Below are positions 36,791 through 63,694 of a stretch of DNA of 64,000 nt, in pieces. Both the position numbers and the translations under genes were made by a program. Within the stretch, counting starts at the first letter, position 1. Every line of letters starts with the position of its first letter. The notes beneath the pieces were generated by a model, which saw only the letters and a program-made list of their open reading frames with translations, ran no database searches and was not told the origin of the DNA. Source of the DNA: Amphiura filiformis (lineage: Eukaryota); assembly GCF_039555335.1 (NCBI RefSeq), contig NC_092647.1, forward strand, positions 18,628,946 through 18,692,945. Direction: 5' to 3'.

Positions 36791-36972
36791 GCTATTCCAG
36801 TTGAAATCCACACAATCTATGGAAGACATGACCTTAATCTTCCGCACAAGGAGTGCAAATTTCAAATGGGGCTACTGAATAGGTACTTCCACTTAAAATC
36901 TACACTCCCTCTGTGGGAGATTAAGGTTATGCCTTCCATACAGGGTGTATGGATTTCAACTGGAATAGCCCA
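36791..36972. mobile_element. Hairpin-unit MITE family H, dimer copy (attccagttgaaatccatacaccc…ggaagacatgaccttaatcttcc… / …gggtgtatggatttcaactggaat)
   Basis: A ~180 bp near-palindrome made of two ~90 bp units, each unit itself a hairpin. Confidence 0.75.
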
Positions 36973-37160
36973 TTGATCTCATTTCTTATGTCAAAGTTCA
37001 CCAAACCTCCATTAACTATTGTAGCTCAAAATTTGACCTCAAGTCATAGAGTATGAGTTTGTGTACCCGAGAAAATCATTCTATAAATGTACAAGCATAT
37101 TGTGTTCATAGAAATGTATTGTGACAGATGAACATGAAGAATACTGCACACTGGCAGAAT

Positions 37161-37440
37161 GGGCTATTCCATTTAAAATCCACACTACCCCTGTGGAAGA
37201 TTTTGGAAATATGTTCCACAAAGGGAATATGAATTTCAAATGGAATGAACACATTAGCAGCTCCGTTTGAAACTCACACTCCCTCAAGGGAAGATTCAGG
37301 TTGAATCTTTCTTAGAGGGTGCATGGAATTCAAATGGATCTGCCTAATGCACTCATTTCATTTGAAATACATACTCCCCCTGTGGGAGATATTTCCAAAA
37401 TCTTCCACAGGGGGAGTGTGGATTTTAAATGGAATAGTCC
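37161..37440. mobile_element. Family H, trimer copy (three ~95 bp hairpin units)
   Basis: Three successive units of tccatttRaaatccacac-ccctgtggaagat-loop-atcttccacagggg-gtgtggatttYaaatgga. The same trimer architecture occurs at 43821-44088 and 63403-63694. Confidence 0.7.
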
Positions 37441-37763
37441 AATCATGCTATAATTACTTGTCTGACAATGTAAAGATATTATAGTACAAACTGTCTGCAT
37501 GTCTTCCTCGAGGCAGTAAAGTAAAATCAAATTTTGTGATTTTCTCAAAAACTGCCCAATTTTGCAGGAATCGATTATGCTAGTTGAATTTCTTGTATCA
37601 TCTCCTTTCTAAAAATGTATCCTTTTAAATACTTATCATTATTACGTTATAGTAGAAAACAAATCTAAATTACTGACTCGATAAAGGCATATGTTCAACC
37701 AAGTGTTTATCTGAATTCAACTAAGTTTGAAGTAAATACCCGTCATGATACATGAGATAAAGT

Positions 37764-38060
37764 GGGCTATTCCATTTAAAAACCACACACCCTCAGTGGA
37801 AGATTTCACTACCATCACAATTCCAGTTGTACCTTATGGTCAATGCAGCTGCACATTTTTGCAAGTTTCAAGAAAATTGTTGAAATTTATAAAATCCAGC
37901 TGAATTTTGCACAATTTAGCTTAGAATTATTAAGTTTTGTTTAGAATTACAACTTTTTATGGATGAAAGTGGTTGTATCTGGAATAATCTAAACTCTTGA
38001 ATTTGGTTGAAATTGCAAAATCTTCAGTAGTGGGGGTGTGTTTTTCAAATTGAACAGCCC
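37764..38060. mobile_element. Family H, long variant: hairpin termini around a ~200 bp internal segment
   Basis: The termini gggctattccatttaaaaaccacacaccctcagtggaagat … atcttcagtagtgggggtgtgtttttcaaattgaacagccc match family H. The internal region matches the 61196-61500 copy. Confidence 0.6.
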
Positions 38061-38865
38061 ATTAAGCTGCTTTCCTCACCAAGACTAAAATCTATGCACC
38101 AACACATCGTGGGTTTGGTTCAAGAACAGCTTATCTGCAGTAACTGCCCTATAGACAATTGAACCATTTCTGCATTCTATATTGTACACACATGACACCT
38201 GGCAGCTGCAACTGCAATAGCTGCCCTATGGACATATGGCAGTTTCTAAAGGCTGTATTGTGCACATATGACAGCTGGCAGCTATTGGTCTTTCTTGCAC
38301 TACACCCTCGAATGAGGTTTTTGTCAACAATTTGACAAGTCTTAACAATTTTCAAAAATATCTGTCACTATTTGTTTCATAAAAAATGACCCTGCTACGT
38401 TACGAGGTTTGAAAACATGTTCAATATGACTTTCTTTTGCATACATAGATAAACACATCTTATTCCATCACCTATGGAAATTGCCATAATAATATTTTGC
38501 AGTAAACCTTTGACGAGCTTGTACTACCGTGATGCTGCAAAGTCAGAGCTAACAACACGTACGACGCAAAGTTCATTCGTAAATTTCCACCTCGGCAACG
38601 GCAGATCGCCTCAGCAGCCAATCAGAGACAAGTCCGTTTCAACGCTGTTAATATGCGATATACGCTTTCATCAAAGGTTTTCTGCAAAATATTATGGTTC
38701 TCTACTTACCTGCTGCTAGTGGTGAACATTGCTCACAACTTCATCAATCTAGAAAATAGGCTGAAACTCCGCACAAGCTTCATACATATCAGCCTTGTAA
38801 TCCACATTTGCACCTTACCAACAAATGTTCATGTTATCTTCTCTAATAGTTGACCCCATGGGCAC

Positions 38866-39094
38866 TACTAGTCTAATTAGCCATCTCTAAGAACTAATTT
38901 GATTGGTTACAAAGAGGACTATATCATATATTGAGCCAATCAGAGATTAAGTTAGAATGCCCATAAGGGCTGAAGGCGATAAAGCTTAAAAACTGCTTAG
39001 AGATCTAAAAGCTCCAGTTTGATTGGTTACTCATAATGATCTTATCATGTAATTAACCAATTAGAGACAATGTAAGAAAGCAGTAGTGCCCATG
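38866..39094. mobile_element. MITE with termini ccatgggcactactagtc … agtagtgcccatgg. Internally it has paired CCAAT/ATTGG motifs (gattggttac … ccaatcagag).
   Basis: 14-bp perfect inverted termini and internal inverted CCAAT-box-like motifs. Confidence 0.55.
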
Positions 39095-39877
39095 GTGTTA
39101 ACAGCAGTTCCAATACAACCCTCTGGGTTGGGACCTTATTGGAATAGGTCTGTAATTTAATACTTTTTACTCGTAGCCCAATTGCAAAAAATTTGCGATC
39201 CCATAACTTTTGCCATTACCAAAAAATTATGATTTTAGACCCGAATGTACACATCGTGGGATCTTAACAGAATCCTGCCCCAAAGTTTGATGGGAACCAC
39301 TGCTTGTAATAATCACTACAGACCACAAAAGAATTAAGGTACCAGTTATGATTGTTCACCCCTGTATAATATCCTAAACAAAGAGAGACGTGTCATAATT
39401 AGAACTAGCAGCCAATAGCTGCACCTTTTTGTACATTCATTGAAATTGGTCAAGAAATGAAGACACAACAATCCCCAATATCATCCCAACAAAGATGCAA
39501 ATTCAAAAGTTACAGTTTGCTTCTTTGGATGCTCTTTGTACATAAAGCATTCTCGAAAAAGAGAACTAGCACTGAGCTTTTCATTGATTAGATCATTAAA
39601 ATTCTTCTGATTTTGTTCTTTCTTTTGGTTTTAGGTCACTGAGTTTCTTTAATTCTCAACCAATTCAACAAACAAGATCTTAAATCAGAGCTATATGGTA
39701 CAGGTAGTGGCTGCTGGTGTAATGACATATTTGTTGTTGTTTAGGATTGAACATAACTGTGAAGAAGTGAACATAACTGATACCTTAATTCTTTTGTGGT
39801 TTGTATAATGTTGCGCTACAGACAGGTGTACATGGACAGTAATCACTTAATAATATACAAATATTGACTGCTATGAA

Positions 39878-39998
39878 GGGCATAGTTAAAATTATAGGCC
39901 CGAGGTGATGTCAAAACCATGACTATGCCCGAAGCGAAGCTGAGGGCATAGTCATGGTTTTGACATCACCTCGGGCCTATAATTTTAAACTGTGCCCC
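39878..39998. repeat. Perfect 121-bp palindrome with 53-bp arms and a 13-nt loop (gaagcgaagctga)
   Basis: gggcatagttaaaattataggcccgaggtgatgtcaaaaccatgactatgccc is mirrored exactly by gggcatagtcatggttttgacatcacctcgggcctataat…. Confidence 0.85.
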
Positions 39999-40024
39999 GA
40001 ATATTAAGCAGTTAATATTTGTTT

Positions 40025-40624
40025 TATATACCGAATAATATAGATTCTTCTCATTTGATTGGTTAAAAGATTTCCTGACTGACAAGGCCTACAAGCTTTT
40101 AACTGCATAGGCCTAAGTAAGCTTAAATGCACACAGTGCATGCAAGAGCAAGGGTGCAGAATTTGGACCGATATCTACCGATTTCATATCTAAAACAACC
40201 CTACCGTTTCTGTGCTAACATCACACACTGCCGAGTCTCCAGGTCATAGTAATTTGTCTAAAAAGTGACATTTGGCAGGTCTAAATCCTTGACATGTAAC
40301 AGATTGTAAACAATCACTGCACTCACGGCGGCCAGGGAAAGATCGTCGTCAAGGAGAGGTCAAATTCCATTTCGAACTGTGATCGCGATAGTCTCTTTTA
40401 CAACACTGTAATCAACGCCGGCCGTATAGTGGAGTGCGCAATGTATCTGAGCGATCTGTGTATTCGGGTTGGGAATATCCAATTATTTAGCGGGCACAGT
40501 TGAATCTATGCCCGGGGCACAGTTGTTGCTTATGACGTCATCTTGATAGAAAAAGGGGGCACAGCTATTTTAATGATTCCACTTTTAACCAATCAGATGA
40601 GAGGAATCTATATGAGGTATATAA
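40025..40624. mobile_element. Non-autonomous element with ~45 bp TIRs (tatataccgaataatatagattcttctcatttgattggttaaaag / cttttaaccaatcagatgagaggaatctatatgaggtatata), adjacent to the palindrome
   Basis: Inverted termini. The interior contains gggcacagtt repeats and a TGACGTCA palindrome at ~40533. Confidence 0.5.
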
Positions 40625-40864
40625 CATGGAATGATATTCCATTAATGTTAAGTTCTTAATTGATAAGATTAGATGTTTAGTTGTAAATGTGATGTCACAC
40701 ATGTACAAAATCTAATCCCATCTAATGTCTTAACAAATAAAACGCATGAGTTCAAATGGATTAGTTTAACTCAACATGATTAGTCATGGTGGTTCAAAAT
40801 ATGTGTACATAAAGACAATACAACTAAACAAATTAGTAAGTAATTCATATAATTCTTATAATTG

Positions 40865-41044
40865 GTTATTCCAGTTGAAATCCATACACCCTATGGAAAA
40901 CATGACCTTAATCTCAAACAGGGGGTGTATATTTCAAATGGAGTCACTCGTTTAGGTAACTCCATTTGAAATTCACACTCCATCTGTGGAACATAAGGAT
41001 ATATCTTCCGTAAGGGGGGTTTATGGATTCCAACCAGAATAGCC
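40865..41044. mobile_element. Family H dimer copy
   Basis: Same architecture and termini as 36791-36972. Confidence 0.7.
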
Positions 41045-41663
41045 CAATAATTATGTTCCTACTAATGGCAGTACTGGTTTAGTTAATGAATAAAATTTCA
41101 CTAATCCAAATTCATTACACACAATAGGGTCATCTGACTCAGTTAGTTAAAACCCTAATCATCTTATTATTTCAACACCAACAACAGTTCTCATATTATA
41201 TTATATTTCAATTTTAAATCAGAGACAATTCAAAGTCCTATATTCTGGCCTACATACCCTATAAAAGACCCCATTTACAAAATTCAAACCACTTGGCACG
41301 TACGTGGTGATCGCTATCAAAATTACACAAATATAAGGCCATTAAATGGTTACCAATGTACATAAAACAAGATACCGGAAATATTTCATTACAATTACGT
41401 GGAATATTGACCCACTTTGGAGCCTAATTTTTTAAGCTGTAGATCATTTTTAAACCAAACTAAAATAGTATCATCTCTCCTCTATTTTCAGCTTTGTGCT
41501 AAATATACAGTTCATATTTTACAATTTAGAAGTATGTGATGGCTCAGCAGCAAAGAGACGTATTTCCGTACAAGTGCATAAGTGAATTCACCATACATGT
41601 GTAGTTCATGCTTATCATAGGTAATCATACACAAAGCAACTAATAAAAAAAGCTCAGTGATTT

Positions 41664-41943
41664 ATAGTGCAGTACCCAGGGTTTCCGCACCTTGAAGCCT
41701 TTACAAGGTCAAAAAGCATGATTTTCAAGGATTTACCCCAACACAAAAATCATGATGCGGCTCTCCAAGCGGCACGTGACAGCTCCTCTCCCCAAACTTA
41801 GTCAAAATTATACTTCAGGTAAAATTCCAATTTTCAAGGACTTTCAAAGGACCTTGTGCAAATTTCCAGGACTTTTAAGGCCTTGAAAAGGTGTTTTCAA
41901 ATTCAAGGACTTTCAAGGACCGCAGGAACCCTGGTGCACTATG
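41664..41943. mobile_element. MITE with termini atagtgcagtacccagggtttccgcacc / ggaaccctggtgcactat and internal ttcaaggac subrepeats
   Basis: Inverted termini of ~25 bp. Internal tandem (c)aaggactttcaaggacc motifs. Confidence 0.45.
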
Positions 41944-42071
41944 CACAGGCATAAACCCACAAGCCAAAGCACACTTTACAGGAATTTTCTGACCACTTTG
42001 GCCCAAGACACACCATATAAACCATTTTAGCAACACATGAAAAACAGTGGCTTTTTTCGACGGGAATAAGC

Positions 42072-42210
42072 AAACTATGATGCAATTTTATCAGTTTCGC
42101 CGTCGAACAGTGATTAAAGGAGGAAATAGGAAAAGTGATCCCACCCGGGAATTGAACCTAGGACCTCTGGTTTACGAGGCCAGAGCCTTAACCACGGGAG
42201 CTTCATAATT
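42072..42210 (-). mobile_element. tRNA(Thr-like)-derived SINE copy on the minus strand
   Basis: The reverse complement gives …gtggttaaggctctggcctcgtaaaccagaggtcctaggttcaattcccgggtgggatcac plus the tail cttttcctatttcctcctttaatcactgttcgacggcgaaactgataaaattgcatca. It is inverted relative to 42340-42478. Confidence 0.55.
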
Positions 42211-42339
42211 AGGCAGACTGGGAATTCAACCTATAAGTGGTCACTTAACCCTACCTCCTTTGTGCAAGTCATCCCAATGTGGCTCGGGCTTGACAAGCGT
42301 GAATAGTGCCATCCTCACTGTAGAGGGACATAACATGAA

Positions 42340-42478
42340 AAACAAGTGGCCAAGTGGATAAGGCGCTGGTCTCGTAAACCAGAGGTCCTGGGTTCAATTC
42401 CCGGGCCGGATCACTTTTCCTATTTCCTCCTTTAATCATTGCTCGATGGCGAAACTGATAAAATTGCATCATAATTTT
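42340..42478 (+). mobile_element. tRNA(Thr-like)-derived SINE copy on the plus strand
   Basis: It has a CGT anticodon-loop region and a GGTTCAATTCC T-arm, but no pairable acceptor stem. Its tail is identical to that of the minus-strand copy. The two copies lie head-to-head 130 bp apart. Confidence 0.55.
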
Positions 42479-43443
42479 AGCAACAATCACAGACTTGGAG
42501 CTAAGAAGCACACACCCTATAGAATACATACTGTAGATTCAACTCCCCAAGTTCTCAGATAACCATGACAATAAAACAGTTAGTTCCTTGCCCAGGTGAA
42601 TATCAAGTTAGCACAAGTATTTTACGAGAACAAACAGAGACTGCACAGGGCTCGAACTTGCATCCAGAGATGCCACTTGCTTGTTGAAAAAAAATCAGGA
42701 ATTTGCGAAGCGTATCCACTCATTCATTGCCAAAAATAATCCTGAATGTTTGGCTAAAAATGGCGAAATTTAGGAATTCCTGATAATCGGGAAAAGTGGC
42801 ATCTTTAACGGTAAATTTTGCGACACTTCGAATCATGTGCATATGCCTCAACTTTGCAATACGGCAGTCCTCCAGTTGCCCCAGCTACTACTTGGGGCAA
42901 ATCTAGGTTATTATGCAAACGACACCTTTTCGACGAAGGTCGTGATAATCACAGAACCTACAAAAACTCAGTGTTCACTTGACTGATTAGTGGAGATAAG
43001 TCTTTCTGCTGCAGAGCCATCAAAACTCAAGTCGAAGTACCTACTAATTATTGGTTATTAATGTATTTATTCATGGTAAACAAAATGAACCAACAATATA
43101 TTTTATTCCCTACATCAGTTTTGATTCCCAAGCGATTACAAACATGGTGCATTATATTTTAGTTTTGGATATCGTGTATCAAAATATTTTTTCCTAAATA
43201 ATATTGGAGTACTATAATATTTGTAAAATACAATTTATTACAAAAAGAGATTATTTGTTCATGATTCGTTTAGTACACAACTTTAGGCACAGTACATAAT
43301 ATTTGTAGAAATTCTATTCAATGTATTCATTTACAATTTGAAAAAAAAAAGCAAATAAGAAAAAATACTAAATCCAATAATATATTTAGTTATATTCAGC
43401 ACTTTGTTTACAATTAACCTGCAAGTACATGAGACAGTACGAT

Positions 43444-43612
43444 GGGCTGTTCCAGTTGAAATCCGTAACCCCTATGGAAGACATCACCTTAATATGAATT
43501 TCAAATGCAATCGTCCATTTAGGTACCCCCCATTTGAAATTCACACTCCCTGTGTGGGAGACTAAGGTCGTAACTTCCATAGGGGGTGTATGGATTTCAA
43601 ATGTAATAGACC
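43444..43612. mobile_element. Family H dimer copy
   Basis: Termini gggctgttccagttgaaatccgtaacccc … gggggtgtatggatttcaaatgtaat. Confidence 0.7.
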
Positions 43613-43820
43613 AGTACAAAATATTCTAGGCTTGGGACCAGAACTCGCTTTGTTCCCAAAAAAAGTTTGAAAATGTTAATCACTCTGGAAAAATCAAGAA
43701 ATTTTCAGAAAAATGTATTTTTCCAGTTCTTTTTGAGTAAAAATTTTGAAAAATTGAACATGGCTACTTTAGACACAGTAAGTGTATCCAAGCATAAGCT
43801 TCATAATTAGTTACAAATAG

Positions 43821-44088
43821 AGCTAATCCACTTAAAGAACACACTCCCCATGTGGAAGATTTTGGAAATATTTTCCACAGTGGGAGTATAAATTACCACA
43901 TTAACTAATTCTATTTGAAACTCACCCTCCCTCTGTGGAAGATCAACATTTAAATGTTCTCAGTGGGTATATGAAATTGAAATGGAGCTGCCTATAATGT
44001 TCATTCCATTTGAAATTCATACTCCCCCTGTGGAAGATATTTCCTAAATCTTCCACAGCTGGAGTATGGATTTTAAATGGAATAGCCC
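43821..44088. mobile_element. Family H trimer copy
   Basis: Collinear with 37161-37440. Confidence 0.7.
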
Positions 44089-44435
44089 TGAGCAAGTTCT
44101 GGTTCCAAGTCCTCAATATGACACTAACTTACAACAATAAGGTGTTATTGGTGACTGGTGCATTAACACAACTATGGAAGCAACAGATCACAACCCAGGA
44201 ACACTGTCAACTGTCATACTCATGAGCATGTCAACTAAATTGTGTAGCCCCCCCCTGAGGATATATATAGATTATGCATCTAATGATATTAGTGCTTTGA
44301 AAACTTATACCCAACAACTGATGAGGAACTAGCATCATACCCCAAGTGCTTTTTATACCCTTGTGCATTTAAGGTCATTTCTAGGGTTAGGATCACTGAA
44401 CTTTGTACGAGAGAATACAAATTACAAATAGACAA

Positions 44436-44618
44436 TTGGGGAACTTCCATTTGAAATACTCCAGTTGCGGAAGATATAGGTAAAGTCATATACAGGGGGA
44501 GTATGGGGTTTCAAAATAATTAACCCTGCCCAATTCCATTTGAAAAACATACTCCCTCTGTGGAAGACTTGTTTTAAATCTTCCACAGGGGAATGCCAAG
44601 TTTCAATTGAAATAGCCT
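44436..44618. mobile_element. Family H dimer copy, followed immediately by a family S fragment at 44650-44840
   Basis: Hairpin units ttccatttgaaatactcc…ggagtatggggtttcaaaat and ttccatttgaaaaacatactccctctgtggaagac…. Confidence 0.65.
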
Positions 44619-45276
44619 ATATTGAGCCCCTCTCTCTAACATATTATCACTATGGACCACAATGGCCTCATCCCAATGGCATAGTTCAATAACCTCAATG
44701 AAACAATCAAAGTGTAAAATTTGACCTCAAGTTGCAGAGTACGAGTTTTTGTACACAAATTTTTAAAGGTCATTCAATGAATGTACAACTGTATTGGGGT
44801 TTAAGAACTGTGCCCTGATAGATGAACATGTTGTGAATCCTAGTGTTTACTCATCATTTTGGACTTTTTTAGTTATTTCCAACTAGGAATTTTCCAGGGT
44901 GTGAAATCTCGCCCTAATTCAAAAGCTTAAATGCAGCCCAAATATGAGAACGTGTCCCAAATATGAGAATGTGTCAAATATAATAGAGACAAGAATGTAT
45001 ACCATTACAATAGTGCATTGCGGGAAATTCTCAGAAAGGTCTACGCGCAAAATGTGATCCTCGGAAAACCCCAAGTTTACATCTTAATACATTTCGATTC
45101 ATTTGCATTGTAAATAACTTGGTTCTCAATATAAGACTTTGACAGGTGACAGTGACCCCGATAATGGAATGATCGCACCTTTTCTGTACAGCGGCTTTGG
45201 AGATTACTTCTTGAGTTGAACATTGAGATGATTCTCTGCTTACTCCCTCTCCTTCATTCAGAGGAATGATTGCGTC

Positions 45277-46039: not shown

Positions 46040-46126
46040 ATAAACTTACCTGCATTTCCTTCATCTGATTATCCATATAGAGTTGACCTGAGCTTGCAGG
46101 GGATCTGATCAGGTCTCCTGCTGCTG
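46040..46126 (-). CDS. Tandem-duplicated exon copy a (QGRPAAGDLIRSPASSGQLYMDNQMKEMQ), 87 nt, phase 0-0
   Basis: On the minus strand: acceptor cccccag|caaggg, donor gcag|GTAAGT. It has a single open frame. It differs from copy b by a 24-nt in-frame deletion. Confidence 0.45.
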
Positions 46127-46181
46127 GTCTCCCTTGCTGGGGGCTGGATCATAAGAAGGGAGTTTAACCCTAACCCTGAGG

Positions 46182-46292
46182 ACAAACTTACCTGCATTTC
46201 CTTCATCTGATTATTCATATAGAGTTGATTGTCTACATCCATGAAGAATTGACCTGAGCCTGTAGGGGATCCGAATGGGACACCTTCTGCTG
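46182..46292 (-). CDS. Tandem-duplicated exon copy b (QGRPAEGVPFGSPTGSGQFFMDVDNQLYMNNQMKEMQ), 111 nt, phase 0-0
   Basis: Acceptor …ccgtcag|caagg, donor aatgcag|GTAAGT. Only one of its three frames is open. Confidence 0.5.
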
Positions 46293-46357
46293 GTCTTCCT
46301 TGCTGACGGCTGGATCATAAGAAGGGAGTTTGACCCTAACCATGATGACAAACTTAC

Positions 46358-46464
46358 CTGCATTTCCTTCATCTGATTATCCATATAGAGTTGATTGTCT
46401 ACATCCATGGAGAATTGACCTGAGCCTGTTGGGGATCTGAACGGGTCACCTTCTGCCTCCCTTG
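46358..46464 (-). CDS. Tandem-duplicated exon copy c (…AEGDPFRSPTGSGQFSMDVDNQLYMDNQMKEMQ). It has a 4-nt deletion near the 5' end, so an alternative acceptor 8 nt downstream (ggag|gca) is needed to keep phase 0.
   Basis: The same donor CAG|GTAAGT. It has a unique open frame encoding the conserved peptide. The acceptor position is uncertain, so this may be a decaying copy. Confidence 0.4.
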
Positions 46465-46519
46465 CTGGGGGCTGGATCATAAGAAGGGAGTTTGACCCTT
46501 ACCCTGGCGATTAACTTAC

Positions 46520-46633
46520 CTGCATTTCCTTCATCTGATTATCCATATAGAGTTGATTGTCTACATCCATGGAGAATTGACCTGAGCCTGTTGGGGATCC
46601 GAACGGGTCACCTGCTGCTGCGGCTCTCCCCTG
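46520..46633 (-). CDS. Tandem-duplicated exon copy d (QGRAAAAGDPFGSPTGSGQFSMDVDNQLYMDNQMKEMQ), 114 nt, phase 0-0
   Basis: Acceptor cagcccccag|cagggg, donor aatgcag|GTAAGT. Single open frame. The intron separating it from copy c is only 55 nt. Confidence 0.5.
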
Positions 46634-47015
46634 CTGGGGGCTGGTTCCTGAGAAGGGGGCCTGCCCAAAAGGGTCGCTTGCAGCTCCACCCGACCCTGTT
46701 TAAAGAAATTTAAAGGCATAGTTGTGAACCTTTGTTTAAGTGATAACAATCAAAAATGAGTGACTTATTAAACAAATGAACATCCATTTTAGAACTCTGA
46801 TAAAATCAGAGACAAGCACAATCAGGCATGAGACTGCACTTTCCTAAAAAAACAAAAAAAACTGAAAATGCGCGTGAAATTGGGCAAAAAGTACCAAAAA
46901 CAGGCTGAAATTAAATAAAGTTGCGGAAATTTTGACTATAAAAAAAACTGAATTCAGTTTTTAAACTGAAAATTCTCATGCCTGCACAATTTTGACCTTT
47001 GCCGTTTTATCTTAA

Positions 47016-47212
47016 CCCCATAAGAACTACCTGCCGATGGGCCAAAAAGAAGTTTTCATTATCAATTGGACCAATCAGTAACATTGTTAGAATAATTTCA
47101 CCACACAAAAAAATTTGGGTGAATTATTTGCAAAACTCCATTCTGATTGGTGATTAAAATGAAAATTGACCAATCAGAGGCAATGTTAGATCGGCAGGTA
47201 GTGCTCAGGGGG
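47016..47212. mobile_element. piggyBac-like MITE (family P), ~27 bp TIR ccccataagaactacctgccgat…, with perfect TTAA duplications
   Basis: TTAA at 47012-47015 and 47213-47216. Termini begin CCC…, as in piggyBac. The interior carries paired CCAAT/ATTGG motifs (gaccaatcag / ctgattggtg). Confidence 0.7.
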
Positions 47213-47981
47213 TTAACAATGGCGAGTATCACACTGCAGCTTTCATATCTTCTTACCATAATATTTCAAGGGAAAACATAACAATGGGTAACATGAAACA
47301 TTGTTTCAACAGATTTGTAAAAAATTTTAACTTCTGACAATGAGAAAATCAAGACGGCTGGGATTAAGTTTTAAAAATAACAGGTGTGCTACAAATCACA
47401 CTTCTGGAAATGTTAAGGGGGGCTGTTAGGCATGCTATTAAATTACACTCAATAAGAAGTTTAGGAATCGTGATTTAGGAAGTGTGATATAAATAGCACC
47501 CGGCAAGGCAATTTAAAGTGTGTGATGGTGTGTGATCGCACCAGTATGCCTTAAAACTCAATCCCCGAGACAGCTTTTTCATCATGAGAAATATTGAATA
47601 TTCTTATTCAGTTGGTGTGTCTTGTCAAGAATACACACAATTTGATTGGTTTTGGAGTGTCTTATATCACACAATAGTGGATAAGTGATATTAGTCAGGG
47701 CGCGCGCCGCCACGCAACTGCTGCACGCTTGTTGCTCCTCAATGATCGCGCGATAATGCGCCGGCATCCACTACTCAAAATATTGGCCAGCCCACCCATT
47801 ATGACATGATATTGGATAGGCAAAAGACAAAATCCTATCTTTTATTCTCTAAATATTGAATGGTTTTGGTGTGGCTTTGGTTCGAGGACACCACTCATCT
47901 TAAGCAAGCAACTAAGTAAGGTGTGATACAAGACTATATTTTTCTCTCAAAACAGATTTTGTGTGTCTTGGCTATTCTTAC

Positions 47982-48514: not shown

Positions 48515-49290
48515 ATAAGTTTCATATCCACATGAGGTTTTAGTAATTTGACCACAGATGACCCCTGAGTGACCTTGGATGACCCCAAAATGACATTCCA
48601 AAATTTGGCTTGAAATGTTGACTGTACCCACCAAGTTTCATGCCCATGCGAGTTTTTAGTAACTTAACCTCAGATGACCCCTGGGTGACCTCGGATGACC
48701 CCGAAATGACCTTCCAAAAATTTGACTCTAAATGTTGACTGTACCCAGAAAGTTTCATGCCCATACAACAGTTTTTAGTAATTTGACCTCAGATGACCCC
48801 TTGGTGACCTCAGATGACCCCAAAATAACCGTCTGAAAATTTGACTCTAAATGTTAAGTGTACCCACCAAGTTTCATGCCCATACAAGTTTTTAGTAATT
48901 TGACCTCAGGTGACCCCTTGGTGACCTTGGATGACCCCGAAATGACCGTCCGATAATTTGACTCTAAATGTTGACTGTACCCACCAAGTTTCATGCCCAT
49001 ACGAAGTTTTTAGTAATTTGACCTCAGATGACCCCTTGGTGACCTTGGATGACCCCGAAATTACCTTCCGAAACTTTGACTCATAATGTTAAGTGTATCC
49101 ATCAAGTTTCATGCTCATACGAGTTTTTAGTAATTTGACCTCGGATGACCCCTAAGTGACCTCGGATGACCCCAAAATGGCCGTCAGAAAATTTGACTCT
49201 AAATGTTAACTGTACCCACCAAGTTTCATGCCCATACGACAGTTTTTAGTAATTTGACCTTAGATGACCCCTGGATGACCTCGAAAGTGA
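48515..49290. repeat. Satellite of 117-118 bp unit, ~6.6 copies (…gtttttagtaatttgacctcagatgaccccttggtgacctNggatgaccccgaaatgacc…caagtttcatgcccatac…)
   Basis: Regular period between successive tagtaatttgacc motifs. Confidence 0.9.
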
Positions 49291-49384
49291 CCTTCACCCA
49301 CTAACCAATACAAACTTGTTCTGTCTGGGGTCAAGATGCACCCGCCCACCAAGTTTGAAGAATGTACGACCCTAGTCTCCGAGA

Positions 49385-52884: not shown

Positions 52885-53270
52885 GGGAGGGCGAGTTAGC
52901 GCAGCGGTAGTTCCCTCGCTTTGCACCACTGAGGTCCCGGGTTCAAGCCCCGGCGCGGCCCAAGGACTCATGTGCACTTGGTTTATCCCGATTCAATGCT
53001 CGCTCTCGCAGGTTTTCTCCGGGATCTCAGGTTTCCTCCTGTATCGCAAAAAATCGGTGATTAGTTGTTTGGTTATCAAAACTTCCTTCACCCAATGGAA
53101 TTTGGGGAGCTGCACAGATAATTGGTGGATGTTACAATCTAAATGCGGATAGGTGTGCGCCGCTCGGCAGCAACCTAGTTGATGCGATCTGATTGTGATG
53201 ATTCACCATTGCAGCGAAATTACAGCGCTTTGAGTTCTCTAAGATCTGGAGAAAGGCGCTTTATAAATCC
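52885..53270 (+). mobile_element. tRNA-derived SINE, copy B, the same family as 372-770
   Basis: Collinear alignment with copy A, including the tRNA-like head gcgcagcggtag…ccgggttcaagcccc. Confidence 0.65.
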
Positions 53271-53284
53271 TAAATTTATTTATA

Positions 53285-53896: not shown

Positions 53897-54471
53897 CTGA
53901 AGAGCAGCAAAAAAGGAAAATGATAAATAAGTTATGCTACAGCTAGAAATAATAGTCAATAAGACAATTCAGCTTTACATTCCAGATTCACTGTGGATGG
54001 TTTGGGCAAATTTCAGTACACCTGAACTTTGACCTGTCAGGAAAATTGGGGTTTTTTTTACATAGTATGTAAATTGTTTTACTAAAATTTAAAAATAAAC
54101 CTACCAACAATTTTGTAATCTCATAAATAATTATTCAAAAAACTTTGAATGATAACATTATTACGCTAATAAATTATTAATTAAAGCAATTTTCCCACAA
54201 TGCACTGCAAATTTGTGATGCCGAATTGGTTTATTGCTCTACTAAATCGGTTTTTACATTTTACAACTCAACACAATTCCCACGCATCATCAAAACTTGT
54301 TAAATAATTATTTTTAGTTCTAAATGAAAATAAAATCACTTCATAATCACCATGCAAATGGAAATAGATTCAAAGCATTTTGCAGGAATTGGAACAAATC
54401 CTTGCAGTAAAGTATTTAAACTGAGCAAATGAATGCCCATCATCTCAAATTAAGAGGGCTAGAGCACTTAA

Positions 54472-54680
54472 CCACATGAGAACTACCTGCCGATTGGCCA
54501 AAAAGAAGTTTTCATTATCAATTGTACCAATCAGCAACATTGTTAGAATAATTTCACCACGCACAAAATTGGGGTGAATTATTTGCAAAGCTCCATTCTG
54601 ATTGGTGATTAAAGTGAAGATATCACGTAATTGACCAATCAGATGCAATGTTAGATCGGCAGGTAGTGCTGGGTGCTTTA
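54472..54680. mobile_element. Family P piggyBac-like MITE, copy 2, with its right end degraded
   Basis: TTAA at 54468-54471. ~85% identity to 47016-47212. Confidence 0.6.
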
Positions 54681-55466: not shown

Positions 55467-55556
55467 CGTGTGGAGAGAGATAAATGACAATATCCATTGA
55501 TTTAAGAAATAATGGGATGTTGTCATCAGCAGGCTCAGCAGCTGCAGCGCAATATG

Positions 55557-55835: not shown

Positions 55836-55842
55836 CAAATTG

Positions 55843-56018
55843 GCCTATTCCAGTTGAAATCCACATACCCCATATGGAAGACATGTCCTTAATCTCTCAC
55901 ACAGGGAGTGTGAATTTCAAATGGAGCCACACAACTCCTTTGAAACGTACATCCCATGTGTGGAAGATTAAGGTAATGTCTTCCATAGGGGGTGTATGAA
56001 TTTCAATTGCATTAGCCC
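55843..56018. mobile_element. Family H dimer copy
   Basis: cctattccagttgaaatccacatacccc … gggggtgtatgaatttcaattgcattagccc. Confidence 0.7.
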
Positions 56019-56151
56019 AATGTACAAAATGTAAAGTTTGAATGCCTCAAAGTTGTTTTTTGCCTAGAAAAAGTATCAATATCATTCACCATTTTGTGCA
56101 ATTCCTTTTCTCCAATAAAGGCACCAGATGACATATTTGGTTAGTACCTCC

Positions 56152-56385
56152 CTAAAGTTTGTTCGGTTTATATAAGGCAGAAAAAATAAGACTCATAACA
56201 CCATGTATTGATATAGAATGATGTGCACGCTGTTGGGCGCAATGCTTACGCTAGTTGTGCGTTGCGTAATGCGTGGCGAGTGCACGCTTATGTGAATTTA
56301 GGCGAGCTTGAGTTGGCACTTTATTGAAGCGTGCAGTAACAAAAGCCAAAAAATTTCCGGCTTATATAAGCCGAACAAACTTTAG
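56152..56385. mobile_element. MITE with termini ctaaagtttgttcggtttatataagg / ccggcttatataagccgaacaaactttag
   Basis: ~26 bp inverted termini. The interior is CpG-rich (gcgttgcgtaatgcgtggcgagtgcacgc). Confidence 0.5.
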
Positions 56386-56896
56386 TTATGCACAACTGAC
56401 CAATTACAGGCCGGGTGGAGATGGAATGACAAGTGATGTTAGATGCAACATTGCAATCTTCTCTCTGAATCAGGGTTGTAGCTAGCCAAATTTTACTGCC
56501 AGCTAAAATTAAGAGAATGCCAATTACTTGACAGTAATGGCATTTGACAGTTGTTTTTAGGATAATTTTTCATTCTAGCACTGGTATGCAAGACCTACAA
56601 TTCCCTTGAGTGCCGGTCGGTCATGCTGAGTACTGGATACTGCCGACCACCGTGGCTACAACCCTGCTCTGCATCCAACTTAAATTGTGTTCATTTACAT
56701 CATGATGAGTAGTTTTGTTTTCCCAAAATCCCAATTTAACAAATTCACCTTCTTAAATTATAGCAAGTTATAGAGTTAAACATGAAGTTAGTATTCAGAA
56801 CCTACATACAGGTGGAAACAAAATATGGAACAAAACATGTCTGTGTGCACAAACAAAAAACAAGAAAACAAAACAAACTAGTACACAGTATCAACT

Positions 56897-57226
56897 ACCG
56901 TATTCATTCCAATAAGCGCCCAGGGTGCTTAACAAATTCATTATGGGTGAGCACTTATTTTTTACATGGTTTTCCCAAATTTTTTCCTAACAGGTGTTAC
57001 TGTTTATTAGGCGTTATCGTATGTTACTAAAGGGTCCTGAGACGTTCTAGTCGCTTTTCTGATGCAGAAAATACATTACATGTTTACACAGGACTTCTAA
57101 TCCCCCAGCTATTTCACTGTATCGACGTCTATCCGTCACTTCAACATTAATGGTACCCTTAGCAAATTGAAATTACCCTGGGTGGGCGCTTATTGGGACA
57201 TGGGCGCTTATTGGAACAAATACGGT
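56897..57226. mobile_element. Long member of the accgtatt…ccaataagcgccca MITE family, related to 36118-36259
   Basis: Its termini accgtattcattccaataagcgcccagggtg / caccctgggtgggcgcttattgg…aacaaatacggta are inverted repeats. Confidence 0.5.
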
Positions 57227-57827
57227 ACATATCATTACTAAACACACATAGTAATAACATAATTGCATAATAGATACGCATAGTCTTACACCCTTTGGAA
57301 TCTATCCCAATTTGTGTGCAAGACACTGTTATTCACTCTGATATAGTTATACCAGTTTTACCCCAGTAATCAGTAAGTCCATGCTGTACAGGGTATTCTT
57401 GCAAGTAAAGGGTTATAGACCAACAATTCACAGAGGCAACAATTCATGACATTGGGTGATAGCTGACACCAGCAGCATAAGTATCAACAATTACAACTGC
57501 AATCAGTTTGTTTTCTCTCTGTCATAAGACCCTGTCACCAATTGTTTTCCATCAAATAGCAGCAATTTTGTGCTTTTCTAATGACACACCGGATCGAGGG
57601 CATTTGCAAAGCATACACGGTCATTAAATCATGCTTATGAAAGGCACACACACTAAACGTGTTTCATCAATTTGGACCTTCACTTCACAAGTAAGCTCAC
57701 CTACCCTTACAAATAAAATAAAACACAAATGAACACAAAAGCATGCCATGAATAGAATCAATGCAGGCAGACTCCAAGATTCAGTTTAGTTACATAATGC
57801 ACACCACGATCATGAATTGGGTAATTC

Positions 57828-58002
57828 CAGTTGAAATCCATACACCCCCTATGGAAGACATGTTCTTAATCTTCCACTGAAAGAGAGTGGATTCTAAATG
57901 GAGTTACCTGAATGTGCGACTACATTTGAAATCTACACTCCCAGTGTAGAAGATTAAGGTCATGTCTTCCACAGGGGGTGTATGGAATTCAACTGGAATT
58001 GC
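57828..58002. mobile_element. Family H dimer copy
   Basis: gtaattccagttgaaatccatacaccccctatggaagacatg … gggggtgtatggaattcaactggaattgcc. Confidence 0.7.
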
Positions 58003-58088
58003 CTGTTGTGATTATCTTGGGATGACGAGGAAAGTAAAAGCTGAAAAATGACAAGATTGGAGCTAGGAAATACGGATTATACTATACC

Positions 58089-58219
58089 AGTCACAACCGG
58101 GGTCATGCCCGTCACAACCGGAGTCACAACAGCCTTCTTAGGGCTCTGTGCAGTATCGGGTGGTAAAGGGTGTGTTTGTGCTCTACGTCTTTTAGAAGAT
58201 GGAGGTGGGGGAGAGATGG
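58089..58219 (-). CDS. Candidate exon B (A|ISPPPPSSKRRRAQTHPLPPDTAQSPKKAVVTPVVTGMTPVVT), ~131 nt, phase 1-1
   Basis: Acceptor ctattactcttttctcag|cc. The donor is weak (gactg|GTATAG). Only one frame is open. That frame needs a 1-nt carry-in, which exon A's unique frame supplies. Confidence 0.4.
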
Positions 58220-59442
58220 CTGAGAAAAGAGTAATAGACAACACACAATAGACACATATATATATAAAAAAACTATTCTCTAAAGACAACTTGGATTGCT
58301 ACTATTTGATGACTGCTGGCTGCTTTGGCAAACATCTTATCATATAGGATTCACAACTTATAGTTCCCCCAATGCTTTTTGAAATAAATCAAAAAAATAT
58401 TTTAGGAAATGTAAAAATGTAAAACGGCATGTGTAGCGTCAGACATCACTGCATTCAGTCACAAATTGTTCATTATGTAAAGAAAGAGGTTGTTTTAAAA
58501 GTTGCACCTGAGTCAGTCCCACGCATGAATAGGTAAGACCTCCTGTATTGTTTGAGAGTTGACTCCCACGAATATTCAGATGCAACATTTAAAACTGCCT
58601 TTTTTTACATAATGAACCACTGTTACTGAATACAATGGTGTGTGATGATATAAATTAGTCCATGTGTACAAAACAAATAAAGCTACACATGCCATTTTTA
58701 CACTTTTGTAAAATATTTTTCCATTTATTTCAAAAAGTGTTGGAGGCGGGAGGGGGCTTATAAATTGTAAAACAATATAAATACATCAAACAAAGTCTCT
58801 ACTTCATTCAGTGGTCATAAATTTGAGCACAATTTATTAAAAGTAAATAAAATCTAGATGGAGGAGTGCTGTAATATGTTACCACAGTTGTTTAATAAAA
58901 AGAAGTCGGAATGACAGAGAAATTAACGAGTGAATGACATTCAAAAAGTTGCAGCATGTGTTTATCTGCCTGTGGTCAGTAAAGGAAGCTTAGGTCAGTA
59001 ATTGAAGTTCAGATTCATTTGGTACAAAGGGACCTAGTGGGCAAATTGGACCACTAACAAAGCAATAATGCTGAAAAATGAACAATAAACTTTTCAATTA
59101 AAACCAAAACTGAAAAGTGAACAATAAACTTTTCAATTAAAACTAAAACTGAAATTTGAAATGGTAGTTGGCTACGCTGGGCGGTGGCGGGCGGACCTGC
59201 CCGGCACTCTTAATTTCCACTCGGCACTCAAGTTAATTTTGAGCCCAAAACCCAGCACTCCAGTCTCAAATGTTTCAAAATCAATGAAAAATCAATATAA
59301 AAACTAGCAATTCTTATCAAAATTTCAATTTTTTTACCATTTCATATAAATTTCACCCGGCACTAAAATTTGCCTAGCTATAACCCTGGTAGTTAGCACC
59401 CATACATGTAGACATTGAAGACTTTGTGCAAGCTAAGGGATC

Positions 59443-60078
59443 TGGAATGAGCGTTTTGAGCATTTCGATAGTATTTTTTGTGGGACATGAGAGCACATCA
59501 GACATATCGAATTGCATTCTGAATACGAAGAATGCCTTTCTGATATCAAATAATTCTCATTTTATGAAATTTACGATATAATACAAATTTTATGACAAAT
59601 TAATAAAATTTGATATTTTTCACATTTTTGAGATATAACAGTCCTCGAAGTAAATTTTATAAATTTAATGATATATTCTTAAAGTGTATGTAGCTGGGAG
59701 GAAAAGCCGACGATCAATTGAAAATTGAAAGATAAGGATTTTTTTCCCAAAAAGACCTTTTTTATTTTGGTGTTTTGGGAAAAAAAATCCATATCTTCAA
59801 TACGAAAGGTCAAAATTTGCAATTGATCGTCGGCTTTTCATCCCACCTATATCTTCTTCAAATATAAATCATTAGATTTATAAAGTTTACTTCGAGTAAT
59901 GTTAAATATCAAAAATATCAATTTTTAATGATTTGCCATAAAATGTGTATTACTTTGCGAATTTCAAAAAATCAAAATTATTTGATATCAGAAGGCCATT
60001 CTTCATATTCAGAATGCAATTCGATATGTCTGATGTGCTCTAATGTCCCACAATAAATACTGCCCAAACGCTCATACC
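59443..60078. mobile_element. Foldback element of ~635 bp with ~250 bp inverted arms and a palindromic ~110 bp centre
   Basis: The left arm ggaatgagcgttttgagcatttcgatagtattttttgtgggacatgagagcacatcagacatatcgaattgcattctgaata… is mirrored by the arm at 59830-60078. The centre aaagccgacgatcaattg…caattgatcgtcggcttt is itself palindromic. Confidence 0.8.
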
Positions 60079-60467
60079 CCTTCCTTAATTCTTTTTATAT
60101 TTTAAGAAATTTGTAATTTTATGTACAAAATATAGTATGTGAAAGTACATACAATTCATATGTGAAAAGTTGAACTACAAAGTATTCCTGAAACATGCTA
60201 TTAAAAAGGCCAAAACATAAGCACTTAAAAAAGAAGGCAAGCTAGGTTTCACATCAAATGTCTTTATTTTAGTAAAAGAAGGAGCTACAGTGGAAACTCA
60301 TTATAACGAAGTTGTCAGGGACAGAGAAATTAGTTCTTTATATCCAAATTTTGTTATATCAGGGTTGTAAAAACAATATATAACAAAAGAATTTTGTATC
60401 TTGGTTCTAGAAAAATACTTCTTTATAACAGGGTTTTTCTTGTTATAATGAGGTTTTACTGTATTAT

Positions 60468-60648
60468 AATTCCAGATGAAATCCATACAATCCCCTATGG
60501 AAAACATGACCTTAATCTCACACACAGATGCAGTTTTCAGATGGTGTCATCCATTCAGGTAACCCCATTTCAAATTCACACTCAATGTGTGAAAAATGAA
60601 GGTCATGTCTTCCATGGGGAGGTGTATATATGGACTTCAACTTGAATA
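60468..60648. mobile_element. Family H dimer copy
   Basis: ataattccagatgaaatccatacaatcccctatggaaaacatgaccttaatctc … gtgtatatatggacttcaacttgaat. Confidence 0.65.
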
Positions 60649-61195
60649 ACTGGGGAGGGGGCAGTGGGGCTCATAGTGGAAACGAGGGCAAGGGGATGTG
60701 GATTTGGGGTGAATTTTCTATTTTCAGCAATTTAGTTTAAGACTCTGGGTGTAATTTTAGCCATTTCGATTTTTGATGGCCCTCAATTTCATACAAATTG
60801 GTTTAAGAAATGGTGTTTTTTCACAATTTTCTTGAAAAAGTGCCAATTTTGCATCATTTTTTTAAGCAAAATTTGCAAAATTTTCCCAAAAATTGGTATA
60901 ATTTTGGGTCCGATTTTCGTCAGATTTGGTTTAAAGTTGGGTCGTTTTTCGGAGCCCCAGCCACACATCCCCACCCAAACCAAAGTTGATAATAACCCCC
61001 CCCCCACACCCGGGTGAATAGCCCAGTAAATGTCACAGCAGTCAGTCACATCAAATAGCACCCAATCCAGATACACACAACAATAACAGGTGCACAAAGT
61101 TTGGCAAGTTAATATTGCAGTGCAGTCATGCTTTCTATTGATAAAGACATGGCTTGGTCTCGTATCACTACACATGCATGCACTATATTTACAAT

Positions 61196-61500
61196 GGGAG
61201 ATTCCAGTTAAAATACACACCCCCTGTGGGAAAAGTTGACTGCCAGCTCAATTCCAATTGCACCTAGCTGGAAATGTGAACTTACAGCTAAAATTTCATC
61301 GAAATTTATCAAATCCAGCTAAATTTAGCATAACTTTGCCTAAAATTAGACATATTTTGCTTGGAATTCCAAAATCTTCGACACCTTTTCCAATTTTTAA
61401 GGATGAATATGGTAGGATTTGGAATAATTTAGACTGCTGAATTTGGTTGGAATTTCAAAATCTTCCACAGTGGGAGTGTGTTTATCAAATGGAACAGCCC
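61196..61500. mobile_element. Family H long variant, with its internal ~200 bp homologous to 37812-38010
   Basis: Termini gggagattccagttaaaatacacaccccctgtggg … atcttccacagtgggagtgtgtttatcaaatggaacagccc. Confidence 0.6.
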
Positions 61501-61603
61501 AACACTTGGCCATGCATTTTCACTGCTATTGCTATACAGTGGTTTTTACGGGCCTTGTCAAATCCTTCAGCATATATTATACTGATGTACAGGAGTGTAT
61601 TAA

Positions 61604-61810
61604 CCCCATGACAACTACCTGCCGATTGGTCAAAAAGAAGTTTTCATTATCAATTGGACCAATCAGCAACATTGTTAGAATAATTTCACCACACAAAAGA
61701 ATTGGGGTGAATTATTTGCAAAGCTCCATTCTAATTGGTGATTCAAGTAAAGATACCATGTAATTAACCAATCAGAGGCAATGTTAGATCGGCAGGTAGT
61801 GCTCAGGGGG
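61604..61810. mobile_element. Family P piggyBac-like MITE, copy 3, with perfect TTAA duplications
   Basis: TTAA at 61600-61603 and 61811-61814. TIRs ccccatgacaactacctgccgat / atcggcaggtagtgctcaggggg. Confidence 0.7.
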
Positions 61811-61948
61811 TTAACACTAACATACATAGAGAAGTACTGGCAAATGCGAATAGCAATACACTATTACTGTGGACACACATGTTGCGTTTTTGTCTCATTT
61901 TCCGCTGAAAGTTCCAGTTTTTACCACTGAGTGTGGACTGACACTATG

Positions 61949-62132
61949 CGCTATTCCAGTTGAATTCATTACACCCCCTATGGAAGATGTTACCTGAATT
62001 TCCCACACAAGGGTGTATATTTCAAACAGAGTCACCCATTCAGGTAACTCAATTTGAAATTCACACTCCCTGTGTGGAAGATAACAGTTATATCTTCTAC
62101 AGGGGGTGTATGCATTTCAACTGGAATAGCCT
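61949..62132. mobile_element. Family H dimer copy
   Basis: gctattccagttgaattcattacaccccctatggaagatg … gggggtgtatgcatttcaactggaatagcc. Confidence 0.7.
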
Positions 62133-62422
62133 CATTGAGCATACACTGTCATGCTTGATTCATGCACTATGATGCATTTCTATTGCATTCCTATACCTTA
62201 TACTGGATCTACAAAATTATACTGTAAATACAACAGTAAATCTCATTTTGTTCACAGCACCAAACATGTCCATGAATTTTGTAAATTTGAACTAAATTTT
62301 AAACTAAAAATTAATGCGCCTTCAAACATTCTAGATTGAATAATTAATAATCACGGATGACTAAATATCTACGCTTCTACAAATCTATGTGCCACAATCA
62401 GGGTATAGGCTTGTATCATGCA

Positions 62423-62697
62423 TAATTGCATATGTGATGCGATCAAGCAAAATCAGTCGGAACTCGGAAATATTGATTTTGAGATATAGCCAAACAAAGG
62501 TAATATTTCCTTTTGTTTCCTATTGTTTTGGAAACTCTTTAATAGCTCATATCTTTGGAACTGGTTGTTCAATTTAAATGGGCTTTTCTGCAAAACTCAG
62601 CTTTGGAAATGCCTTTTACTGTCCTATAACAAACTGAAAATTAATATTTCCGAGTTCCGACTGATTTTGCTTGATCACATCACATATGTGTTAGTCA
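62423..62697. mobile_element. MITE of the atatgtgatgcgatcaagcaaaatcagtc family, 275 bp
   Basis: ~45 bp near-perfect TIRs (catatgtgatgcgatcaagcaaaatcagtcggaactcggaaatatt / aatatttccgagttccgactgattttgcttgatcacatcacatatg). Confidence 0.65.
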
Positions 62698-63073
62698 TTA
62701 GTATATGAGCCTAACAACATTCTATAAGAGAACTTCAGGATCACAGTAATCAAAGCAAACACACAACGTTTTTGTAACATTCTCAAAAAGAGCACAAAGG
62801 TTGCCACAAAATGCTTAAATGTCGGGTTATATAAAGATTATACAGAACGTTTTAATTTATAACATTTTCAAAGCAGTTTTACAAAGTACCACAAGATATT
62901 GTGACAAATGACATTTGAAAAAAAAAATTCCTAAAAAACATTAAATTTTGTTTCTAAAGATTGTTTAAAAACGCTTTTCCAATCTTATAATAACCCCACG
63001 TTCAAATTTATTTAAATGTTTGATTAAAAATGTTAATAATATATTTTGTATTTGCTCAGTGTTTCTTCCTACC

Positions 63074-63278
63074 TGGTACATTTGCATTTTCCGGATTTGG
63101 TTGCTTCTGCCTACTTGGTACCGTTGCGTATTCTGGACCAAGATGGCCATTTGTGGTACCGTTACCTTGTGGGGTAACAGTCATTGCGGCACCTTGTGGT
63201 GTCCCTGGTGATGGCACTCCGCTAGGGAAGGGGGCTGCTTCAAACAAATCCACTGTGGGGGGCTGACTAGGTGGCACC
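63074..63278 (-). CDS. Candidate exon A (VPPSQPPTVDLFEAAPFPSGVPSPGTPQGAAMTVTPQGNGTTNGHLGPEYATVPSRQKQPNPENANVP|g), 205 nt, phase 0-1
   Basis: A long polypyrimidine tract plus AG (ttttcccttttgtgtttgtttgtttgtttgtatgtatacctatctatgggtcag|gtgccacc) on the minus strand. Donor gtaccag|GTAGGAag. The other two frames contain stops. Confidence 0.4.
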
Positions 63279-63402
63279 TGACCCATAGATAGGTATACAT
63301 ACAAACAAACAAACAAACACAAAAGGGAAAAGGAAACAAACATGAAGTGAAAAGAAAAACATGCAAAACCAAAGATAGGTCAACATGGCACTAAGCGGCA
63401 CA

Positions 63403-63694
63403 GGCAGTTCCATTTAAAACCCACATTACCCCTATGGAAAAGTTTATAAATATCTTCCACATGGGGAAAATGATTTTCAAATGAAATGAACACATTAGGC
63501 AGCTCCGTTTGAATTTCATACACCCTCTGAAAAAGATTCCACCTGGATCTTCCACATAGGTTCGTGAGTTTGAAATCGAGCGGCCTATAATGTGTCGATA
63601 ATGTGTTCATTGCATTTAAAAATCATACTCCCCCTGTAGGAGATATTTCCAAAATCTACCACAGGGGAAGAGTGGATTTTAAATGGAACAGCCC
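63403..63694. mobile_element. Family H trimer copy
   Basis: Collinear with the trimers at 37161-37440 and 43821-44088. Confidence 0.65.

Follow-up and report, generated by a model that had tools for sequence, protein, structure and literature searches.

Short palindromic repeats of probable foldback type in a 64-kb stretch of the Amphiura filiformis genome

[quoted passage not shown] They are the closest architectural match to a family of repeats found in 64,000 nucleotides of Amphiura filiformis DNA (GCF_039555335.1, contig NC_092647.1, positions 18,628,946 to 18,692,945 of the forward strand; hereafter the window), which shares all of these features, inverted ends with reiterated sub-units making up most of each element. 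By contrast with the foldback types, which carry direct tandem runs within each end, the sub-units of the present family alternate in orientation, and its elements are very short (170-300 bp). The 13 copies in the window are probably old, inactive members of a non-autonomous, MITE-like foldback-type DNA transposon family without coding capacity. Elements of this kind are already well known and the family is an ordinary repeat; only in the lack of a detectable target-site duplication does it deviate from what is usual.

Several other described systems resemble these elements in part. Like the bivalve tandem-repeat MITEs and HINEs (DTC84, pearl, Cg_HINE; PMC3879986, PMC7492417), they are modular, with variable internal units, a palindrome in each unit and a link to satellites. 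In the bivalve elements, which have AA or TT at the ends, the core repeats are direct and ~160 bp long, a microsatellite is present, and the two flanking modules differ from each other and carry short inverted repeats (PMC3879986, PMC7492417), whereas the present family is fully palindromic, is built of inverted units of ~90 bp and lacks a microsatellite. Bacterial REP, BIME and REPIN sequences (PMC3337134, PMC2817692) likewise use a short module with a small stem in alternating orientation, range from singlets to longer runs and are very numerous; the likeness is a structural analogy only. They are prokaryotic, measure 20-40 bp and are moved by RAYT tyrosine transposases. The DNA transposons of the PIF/Harbinger-ISL2EU-Spy-Pangu (PHIS) group are of interest for their target sites and ends (PMC4482050, PMC4122938): PIF/Harbinger makes a TWA duplication; ISL2EU, confined to animals, makes an AT duplication in the target A/AT/T and has ends that start with GG; Pangu makes an ANT duplication and has ends of 11-40 bp that start with AG; and Spy inserts at AAA/TTT, with the end motif GGANNNNG, and makes no duplication.

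The 13 elements were resolved by an nhmmer search seeded with a single unit and by an arm profile (Table 1). All of them lie within 36.8-63.7 kb of the window, where they span ~2.9 kb, or 10.7% of a 26.9-kb stretch, and positions 1-36.7 kb contain none, apart from one doubtful arm that the arm profile did not recover; under uniform placement of 13 copies, the observed distribution has a probability of ~1e-5 by our own arithmetic. Of the two arm patterns that the initial annotation quoted, TCCATTTGAAATCCACAC has 33 matches in the window against 0.24 expected from shuffled sequence (at most 3 mismatches), and CCCCTGTGGAAGAT has 25 against 0.49. The copies fall into three size classes, comprising eight two-unit elements (D, 169-186 bp), three three-unit elements (T, 268-293 bp) and two long elements (L, 297 and 305 bp). 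The initial annotation, made from the sequence alone, had placed 13 copies between 36.8 and 63.7 kb, and motif counts, nhmmer and the arm profile bear this out; the sizes that it gave for the two-unit copies, the three-unit copies (at 37161, 43821 and 63402) and the long copies (at 37764 and 61196) match the measured lengths. Its description of the family as very abundant is borne out only locally (13 copies in 27 kb) and on the contigs of one foreign metagenome.

The building block of every element is an arm of ~40 nt, (A-N-T) GGGCTATTCCAKTTRAAATCCAYAC ACCCC TRTGGAAGA. Copy alignments place the arms, stacked in alternating orientation, in three discrete layouts; loops and spacers are specific to each layout and conserved among its copies at unrelated sites (mean column identity 76% in the D alignment A1, 84% in the T alignment A2 and 83% in the L alignment A3). 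The D layout (~185 bp) runs arm, loop, arm', followed by a 6-nt junction and the reverse complement of arm-loop-arm'. The T layout (~280 bp) opens with unit 1, has a self-complementary unit 2 in the middle and closes with unit 1 in reverse complement, as unit 3, while the L layout (~300 bp) places two arms, forming 44-nt inverted ends, around a core of ~210 bp; within the window, the core of L3 is similar only to that of L11.

The orientation of the units was established by comparing them with each other. The loop of unit 1 in the D layout, CATGACCTTAATC, recurs in unit 2 as the reverse complement GATTAAGGTCATG. When unit 1 is set against unit 2, identity is 0.63-0.78 with unit 2 in reverse complement (0.77 in D1), as against 0.51-0.66 in direct comparison (0.63 in D1), and the self-complementarity of single units is 0.52-0.70. 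In the T copies, units 1 and 3 are 0.71-0.87 identical when one of them is read in reverse complement, and inverted identity exceeds direct identity in seven of the eight D copies and all three T copies. Unit 1 thus recurs in reverse complement, with its loop, as unit 2 of the D copies and as unit 3 of the T copies, which makes one long palindrome of each element. An inverted-repeat search returns T2 as two arms of 101 nt (37157-37257 and 37344-37444) that are 87% complementary, and in whole-element folding as single-stranded DNA, T2 (-101.6 kcal/mol, z -18.6) and D9 (-63.5 kcal/mol, z -14.2) each form one long hairpin. At none of the 13 copies does Tandem Repeats Finder detect an array. What had been described as dimers and trimers of a hairpin monomer are thus two-unit and three-unit forms whose units are inverted and not tandem, so that the 'multimers' are better described as nested palindromes than as head-to-tail repeats. 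The accompanying statement that the monomer is itself a near-perfect hairpin is true only of unit 3 in T2 (z -8.4) and in T6 (z -10.5), the remaining single units folding weakly (z -2 to -4). Each arm also holds a small subterminal stem of its own, TCCAYA-N7-TRTGGA, in which Y and R covary (Fisher p 0.008); this is weak evidence for the stem because the copies are related to one another and not independent.

The ends of the elements are sharp and consistent from copy to copy, as called for in the initial annotation and found by end logos, the inverted-repeat search and column identity. They read GGGCTATTCCA...TGGAATAGCCC and are flanked by A-N-T (logos from 175 and 131 arms). In the logo of the 131 outer arms, conservation stops at -3/-4, the flank having A at -3 (.62), any base at -2 (A.38, T.37, C.14, G.11) and T at -1 (.65), after which the element begins with GGGCTA (+1 being G in.60 and A in.18). 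The sharpness of the ends follows from the identity to consensus, which is 0.71-0.91 inside the D ends and drops to 0.4-0.5 in the flanks just outside. The left end of D10 is damaged, and a 20-bp tandem duplication there (GGTTTTACTGTATTATAATGA x1.9 at 60432-60470) appears to span the original junction of element and flank.

Measured against the D consensus, the outer arms are 0.87-0.89 identical, the inner arms 0.76-0.87, the loops 0.79-0.91 and the central junction 0.71. Divergence from the local consensus is 10-16% in the D copies (D7, at 39%, apart), 7-13% in the T copies and 9-15% in the L copies. Decay is roughly even across arms, loops and spacer, and for this reason fits dead copies that are ageing neutrally; host-level constraint on the arms was considered and rejected on the same uniformity of stems, loops and spacers. 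The elements have no discernible coding content. No open reading frame of at least 110 aa overlaps them, one chance frame excepted, and the window is without long open reading frames; Pfam returned no domain in the concatenated open frames of at least 70 aa from 44-64 kb, and the translated element consensus gave no protein match. The missing domains and long frames give no confirmation of the candidate gene in whose introns the initial annotation had placed the copies. The initial designation as a MITE family stands in so far as these are short (169-305 bp), non-coding (no Pfam match), inverted-repeat elements dispersed as discrete units with consistent terminal inverted repeats, and falls short in that a target-site duplication of fixed length is not detectable in 31 paired elements.

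Relatives of the family were found outside the window by an exact-pattern scan of public metagenome contigs, which gave matches on at least 120 contigs. Among the matches listed, ~95 contigs come from one assembly, JAAUXV01 (GCA_013332995.1, sample CHAS20-1_SAMN14350114), one true match is on a JGI contig (L092), and the remainder are chance matches without the flanking GGGCTA and ACACCCC. The JAAUXV01 contigs are host DNA of a species other than that of the window, since no long matches of >90% extend beyond the arms. On the ~95 listed contigs of this assembly, both the 31-nt end module and the D layout are present, complete D-like elements being 68-78% identical to the D consensus; one contig carries a single-unit element of 91 bp (L022), another carries part of the L core (L090), and one related contig (L125) has no copy. 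The D copies of the window are 76% identical to each other and 67% identical to the foreign copies, and this clustering indicates that a conserved master was amplified separately in the two genomes. The pattern used for the metagenome contigs was also run, as a negative control, over 596 Gb of prokaryote genomes, giving 72 isolated matches, at most one per contig, where ~35 were expected by our own estimate; a scan of viral genomes gave chance single matches only, and a search of published papers for the element sequence strings gave only chance matches to primers.

The JAAUXV01 contigs also contain direct tandem arrays of the module, with units of 42 bp x11 (L052), 63 bp (L011/L019/L116) and ~125 bp (L097), together with arrays of 76-83 bp units (L044/L055/L075/L084/L098/L101) of up to six units (L098). 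In detail, L052 1-470 is a direct array of the end module (42-bp unit x11), L098 518-993 is made of six ~82-bp units, each of which joins a short hairpin to a complete arm, and L090 109-500 has one arm followed by internal repeats of ~117 bp, each opening with the inner part of the arm. The earlier proposal that such units seed satellite arrays is hence borne out in the related species, though not in the window. Side features of this assembly include a 289-aa open frame at L058 867-1733 (- strand), with a coiled coil and an RRM-like 'LLITGIPE' motif, which by eye is like ORF1 of a long interspersed nuclear element; L058 is the longest of the JAAUXV01 contigs, and this frame is unrelated to the hairpin arm at its position 5400. 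Contig L110 carries a PNPLA-like exon.

A number of results weigh against the interpretation of these elements as a DNA transposon family. The check for target-site duplications called for in the initial annotation, made position by position and with exact k-mers, detected none in 31 paired elements (k 2-4, offsets of 0-5 per side); the smallest p over 108 tests was 0.013, and none survives correction. A true 2-bp duplication at this level of decay would be expected to leave 12-18 exact matches by our own estimate, while no offset gives more than 7. The middle base of the paired A-N-T flanks agrees in 13 of 30 elements by our own count, where chance would give ~0.31 and a true duplication ~0.7. 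With the joined flanks of every element as query, neither the window nor the fetched contigs yielded an empty site; neither an autonomous partner nor a transposase was found; and the 1-Mb supplement of PMC4482050 contains no PHIS family sequence with the end motif. The hairpin copies are old, and the exclusion of a 2-3 bp duplication is accordingly not a rigorous one. The younger 205-bp family of the window served as a positive control, with TTAA on both sides in two of its three copies. Target duplications in FB, Galileo and MULE elements measure 7-10 bp. A duplication of that kind is not detectable here, the comparison being with the description of those elements and not with their sequences.

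The A-N-T flank and the GG-starting ends point weakly to the PHIS group, with which the family shares an AT-rich trinucleotide adjoining the ends (here A.62, N, T.65), a GG(G) start and an end length of ~40 nt. The specific resemblances are partial. The flank is A-N-T and not the TWA of PIF/Harbinger. The GG start is that of ISL2EU, whose left/right asymmetry of AAT...ATT is missing, AAT and ATT occurring in 27 and 24 of the 131 left flanks and the right flank behaving likewise. As in Pangu the flank is ANT, whereas the two flanks of one element mismatch (13/30 agree) and +1 is mostly G. A duplication is lacking as in Spy, although the AAA/TTT target and the GGANNNNG motif of Spy are absent. 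None of the specific PHIS definitions fits in every tested feature.

Other origins have to be considered for elements with these properties. The copies could be dispersed short satellite-like repeats and not mobilised by a transposase; the arm would then be a palindrome prone to recombination or replication, with local duplication, and would owe its dispersal to ectopic recombination or to circular DNA that reintegrates. The failure to find a duplication in 31 paired elements, the direct arrays of several unit lengths (42 to ~125 bp) in the related species and the strong clustering of the window copies would all agree with such an origin, which we nonetheless hold to be unlikely: the copies in the window are all complete units of the D, T or L type, which share their ends and lie between unrelated flanks, Tandem Repeats Finder finds no arrays at these copies, and a second species has retained the same D layout as a discrete unit. 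The head-to-tail arrays of a satellite occur only on the contigs of the related species, the units in the window being inverted. A further proposal, that the elements are hairpins moved as single-stranded DNA by an HUH-type enzyme, either derived from Helitrons or Helentrons (HINE-like) or an animal counterpart of REP/BIME/REPIN, appears rather improbable. It shares with the preceding one the missing duplication and the head-to-tail arrays in the related species, and draws in addition on the subterminal stem with its covarying Y and R (among copies that are not independent) and on the alternating orientation of the arms, as in BIMEs (PMC2817692). Insertion of Helitrons and HINEs leaves no duplication, and tandem repeats are frequent within them (PMC7492417). 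HINEs, which insert preferentially at TT, are made of two unlike modules with subterminal repeats of 11-12 bp and also carry a 3' palindrome and a microsatellite (PMC7492417); against this, the present elements are symmetric palindromes whose ends are inverted repeats of at least 40 nt, Tandem Repeats Finder detects no microsatellite in them, the two-module features are not present, and A-N-T stands on both flanks. No Rep/helicase or Y1 gene was found. A RAYT-type enzyme was not found here either, nor is one known.

The very favourable fold energies, together with weak matches to microRNA precursor models in Rfam, raise the question whether the elements are hairpin-RNA genes, namely precursors of microRNA or small interfering RNA, kept by selection. 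This is highly improbable. Rfam returned only sub-threshold matches to generic hairpins, far below gathering (e.g. 44 bits against a gathering score of 500, and 30 against 72), such as any long hairpin obtains; the decay is uniform across stems, loops and spacers; and pairing has been lost in most single units.

On the interpretation as a foldback-type DNA transposon family, each layout (D, T and L) would have been copied as a whole unit to unrelated sites, a transposase encoded elsewhere would have recognised the arm, and the reiterated inner arms may have acted as extra binding sites, by analogy with other long-inverted-repeat elements; the copies would have decayed neutrally afterwards. Insertion possibly left no duplication. 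A bolder version, to which we give little credence, takes the family for a cut-and-paste lineage that inserts at A-N-T/A-N-T without duplication, which would be the second case after Spy, with a different target, and whose 31-nt end module, ~90% identical between species while all else changes, would also seed, in a related genome, tandem arrays with many different lengths of unit.

Table 1. Hairpin elements of the window and one doubtful arm, with positions in the window.
Feature	Position	Strand	Description
D1	36789..36971	.	two-unit palindromic, 183 bp; outer arms 29 nt, 93% complementary
T2	37161..37440	.	three-unit palindromic, 280 bp; best-preserved copy, 6.7% from T consensus
L3	37764..38060	.	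44-nt inverted ends, 77% complementary, around a 211-bp non-palindromic core
D4	40863..41045	.	two-unit; nhmmer, D alignment, unit comparison
D5	43444..43612	.	two-unit, internal deletion
T6	43821..44088	.	three-unit; unit 3 a near-perfect hairpin (44004-44082, -26.9 kcal/mol, z -10.5)
D7	44439..44618	.	divergent two-unit variant, 39% from D consensus
D8	55842..56018	.	two-unit; nhmmer, D alignment, unit comparison
D9	57819..58004	.	two-unit; arms 85 nt, 81% complementary, 14 nt apart
D10	60466..60650	.	two-unit, left end damaged, adjoins 20-bp local duplication 60432-60470
L11	61196..61500	.	long variant; part of core also on metagenome contig L090
D12	61948..62132	.	two-unit; nhmmer, D alignment, unit comparison
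T13	63402..63694	.	three-unit; nhmmer, T alignment, unit comparison
Possible degenerate single arm, doubtful	29561..29585	+	4 mismatches in 25 nt to arm motif

The hairpin elements lie in a window of eukaryotic appearance, with 36% G+C, that also contains several satellites, tRNA-like heads of short interspersed nuclear elements (SINEs) and a short (CCCTAA)n run. The younger MITE family of ~205 bp occurs at 47012-47216, 54468-54677 and 61600-61814, the last of these between L11 and D12, and has the ends CCCCATGAGAACTACCTGCCGAT.../...ATCGGCAGGTAGTGCTCAGGGGG, of the form CCC...GGG. Its column identity is 85% including flanks, and 92-98% over BLAST segments. TTAA is present on both sides of two copies, the right end of the third being decayed, and by their sequence these flanks would be the classic piggyBac-type signature. 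An interspersed repeat of ~190 bp (family S) is found at 33162-33345 and 44648-44846 (86% alike) and as a fragment at 37027-37136 (72%), with two of the three copies abutting hairpin elements, and a piece of it lies on JAAUXV01 contig L025 (3422-3491), ~580 bp from a D-like element. The hairpin-S-hairpin arrangement that the initial annotation saw at 36791-37440 is real in that the S fragment does lie between D1 and T2, with the reservation that its similarity to the other S copies is only 72%. Three S copies, two of them adjacent, are too few to judge whether hairpin elements and family S form a composite, and this reading was not upheld.

The largest of the tandem repeats is a ~7-kb minisatellite at 22000-29320, with 41-49 bp units (consensus CCCCTGTCCCCTCAGTAAGGACCCTTGCCACCCTCTTTGAGGCCCCAG), 53% G+C and a GC skew of -0.37 (C-skewed), which near its 3' end contains higher-order units of 177 and 233 bp (91-98% identity). 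It is directly followed by two further satellites, one of 127/65 bp at 29761-31447 (13 copies, 92% matches) and one of 67 bp at 31797-32430 (6+3 copies, 84-94% matches). At 35372-35687, an interstitial telomere-like run, (CTAACC)6, equivalent to (CCCTAA)n at 35540-35577, is flanked by oppositely oriented 16-bp repeats. Between the clusters of hairpin elements there are a 166-bp tandem repeat at 46071-46657 (3.5 copies, 88%) and a 117/235-bp tandem repeat at 48517-49283 (6.5 copies, 86-89%). A partial tRNA-like match at 42347-42404 (Rfam RF00005, 43 bits) and an ARAGORN call of tRNA-Cys type at 52889-52961 are both probably heads of tRNA-derived SINEs rather than genes; SINE-like translated stretches recur near 269-631 and elsewhere in the window.

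The hairpin elements occupy ~11% of a 27-kb stretch, and their potential to form long perfect stems matters for assembly, small-RNA mapping and gene models there. If young copies confirm the apparent lack of a duplication, this would have a bearing on the mechanism of insertion. In two species, a single short end module is common to hairpin units, foldback elements and direct satellite arrays, and this shared module is a compact example of the link between transposons and satellites.

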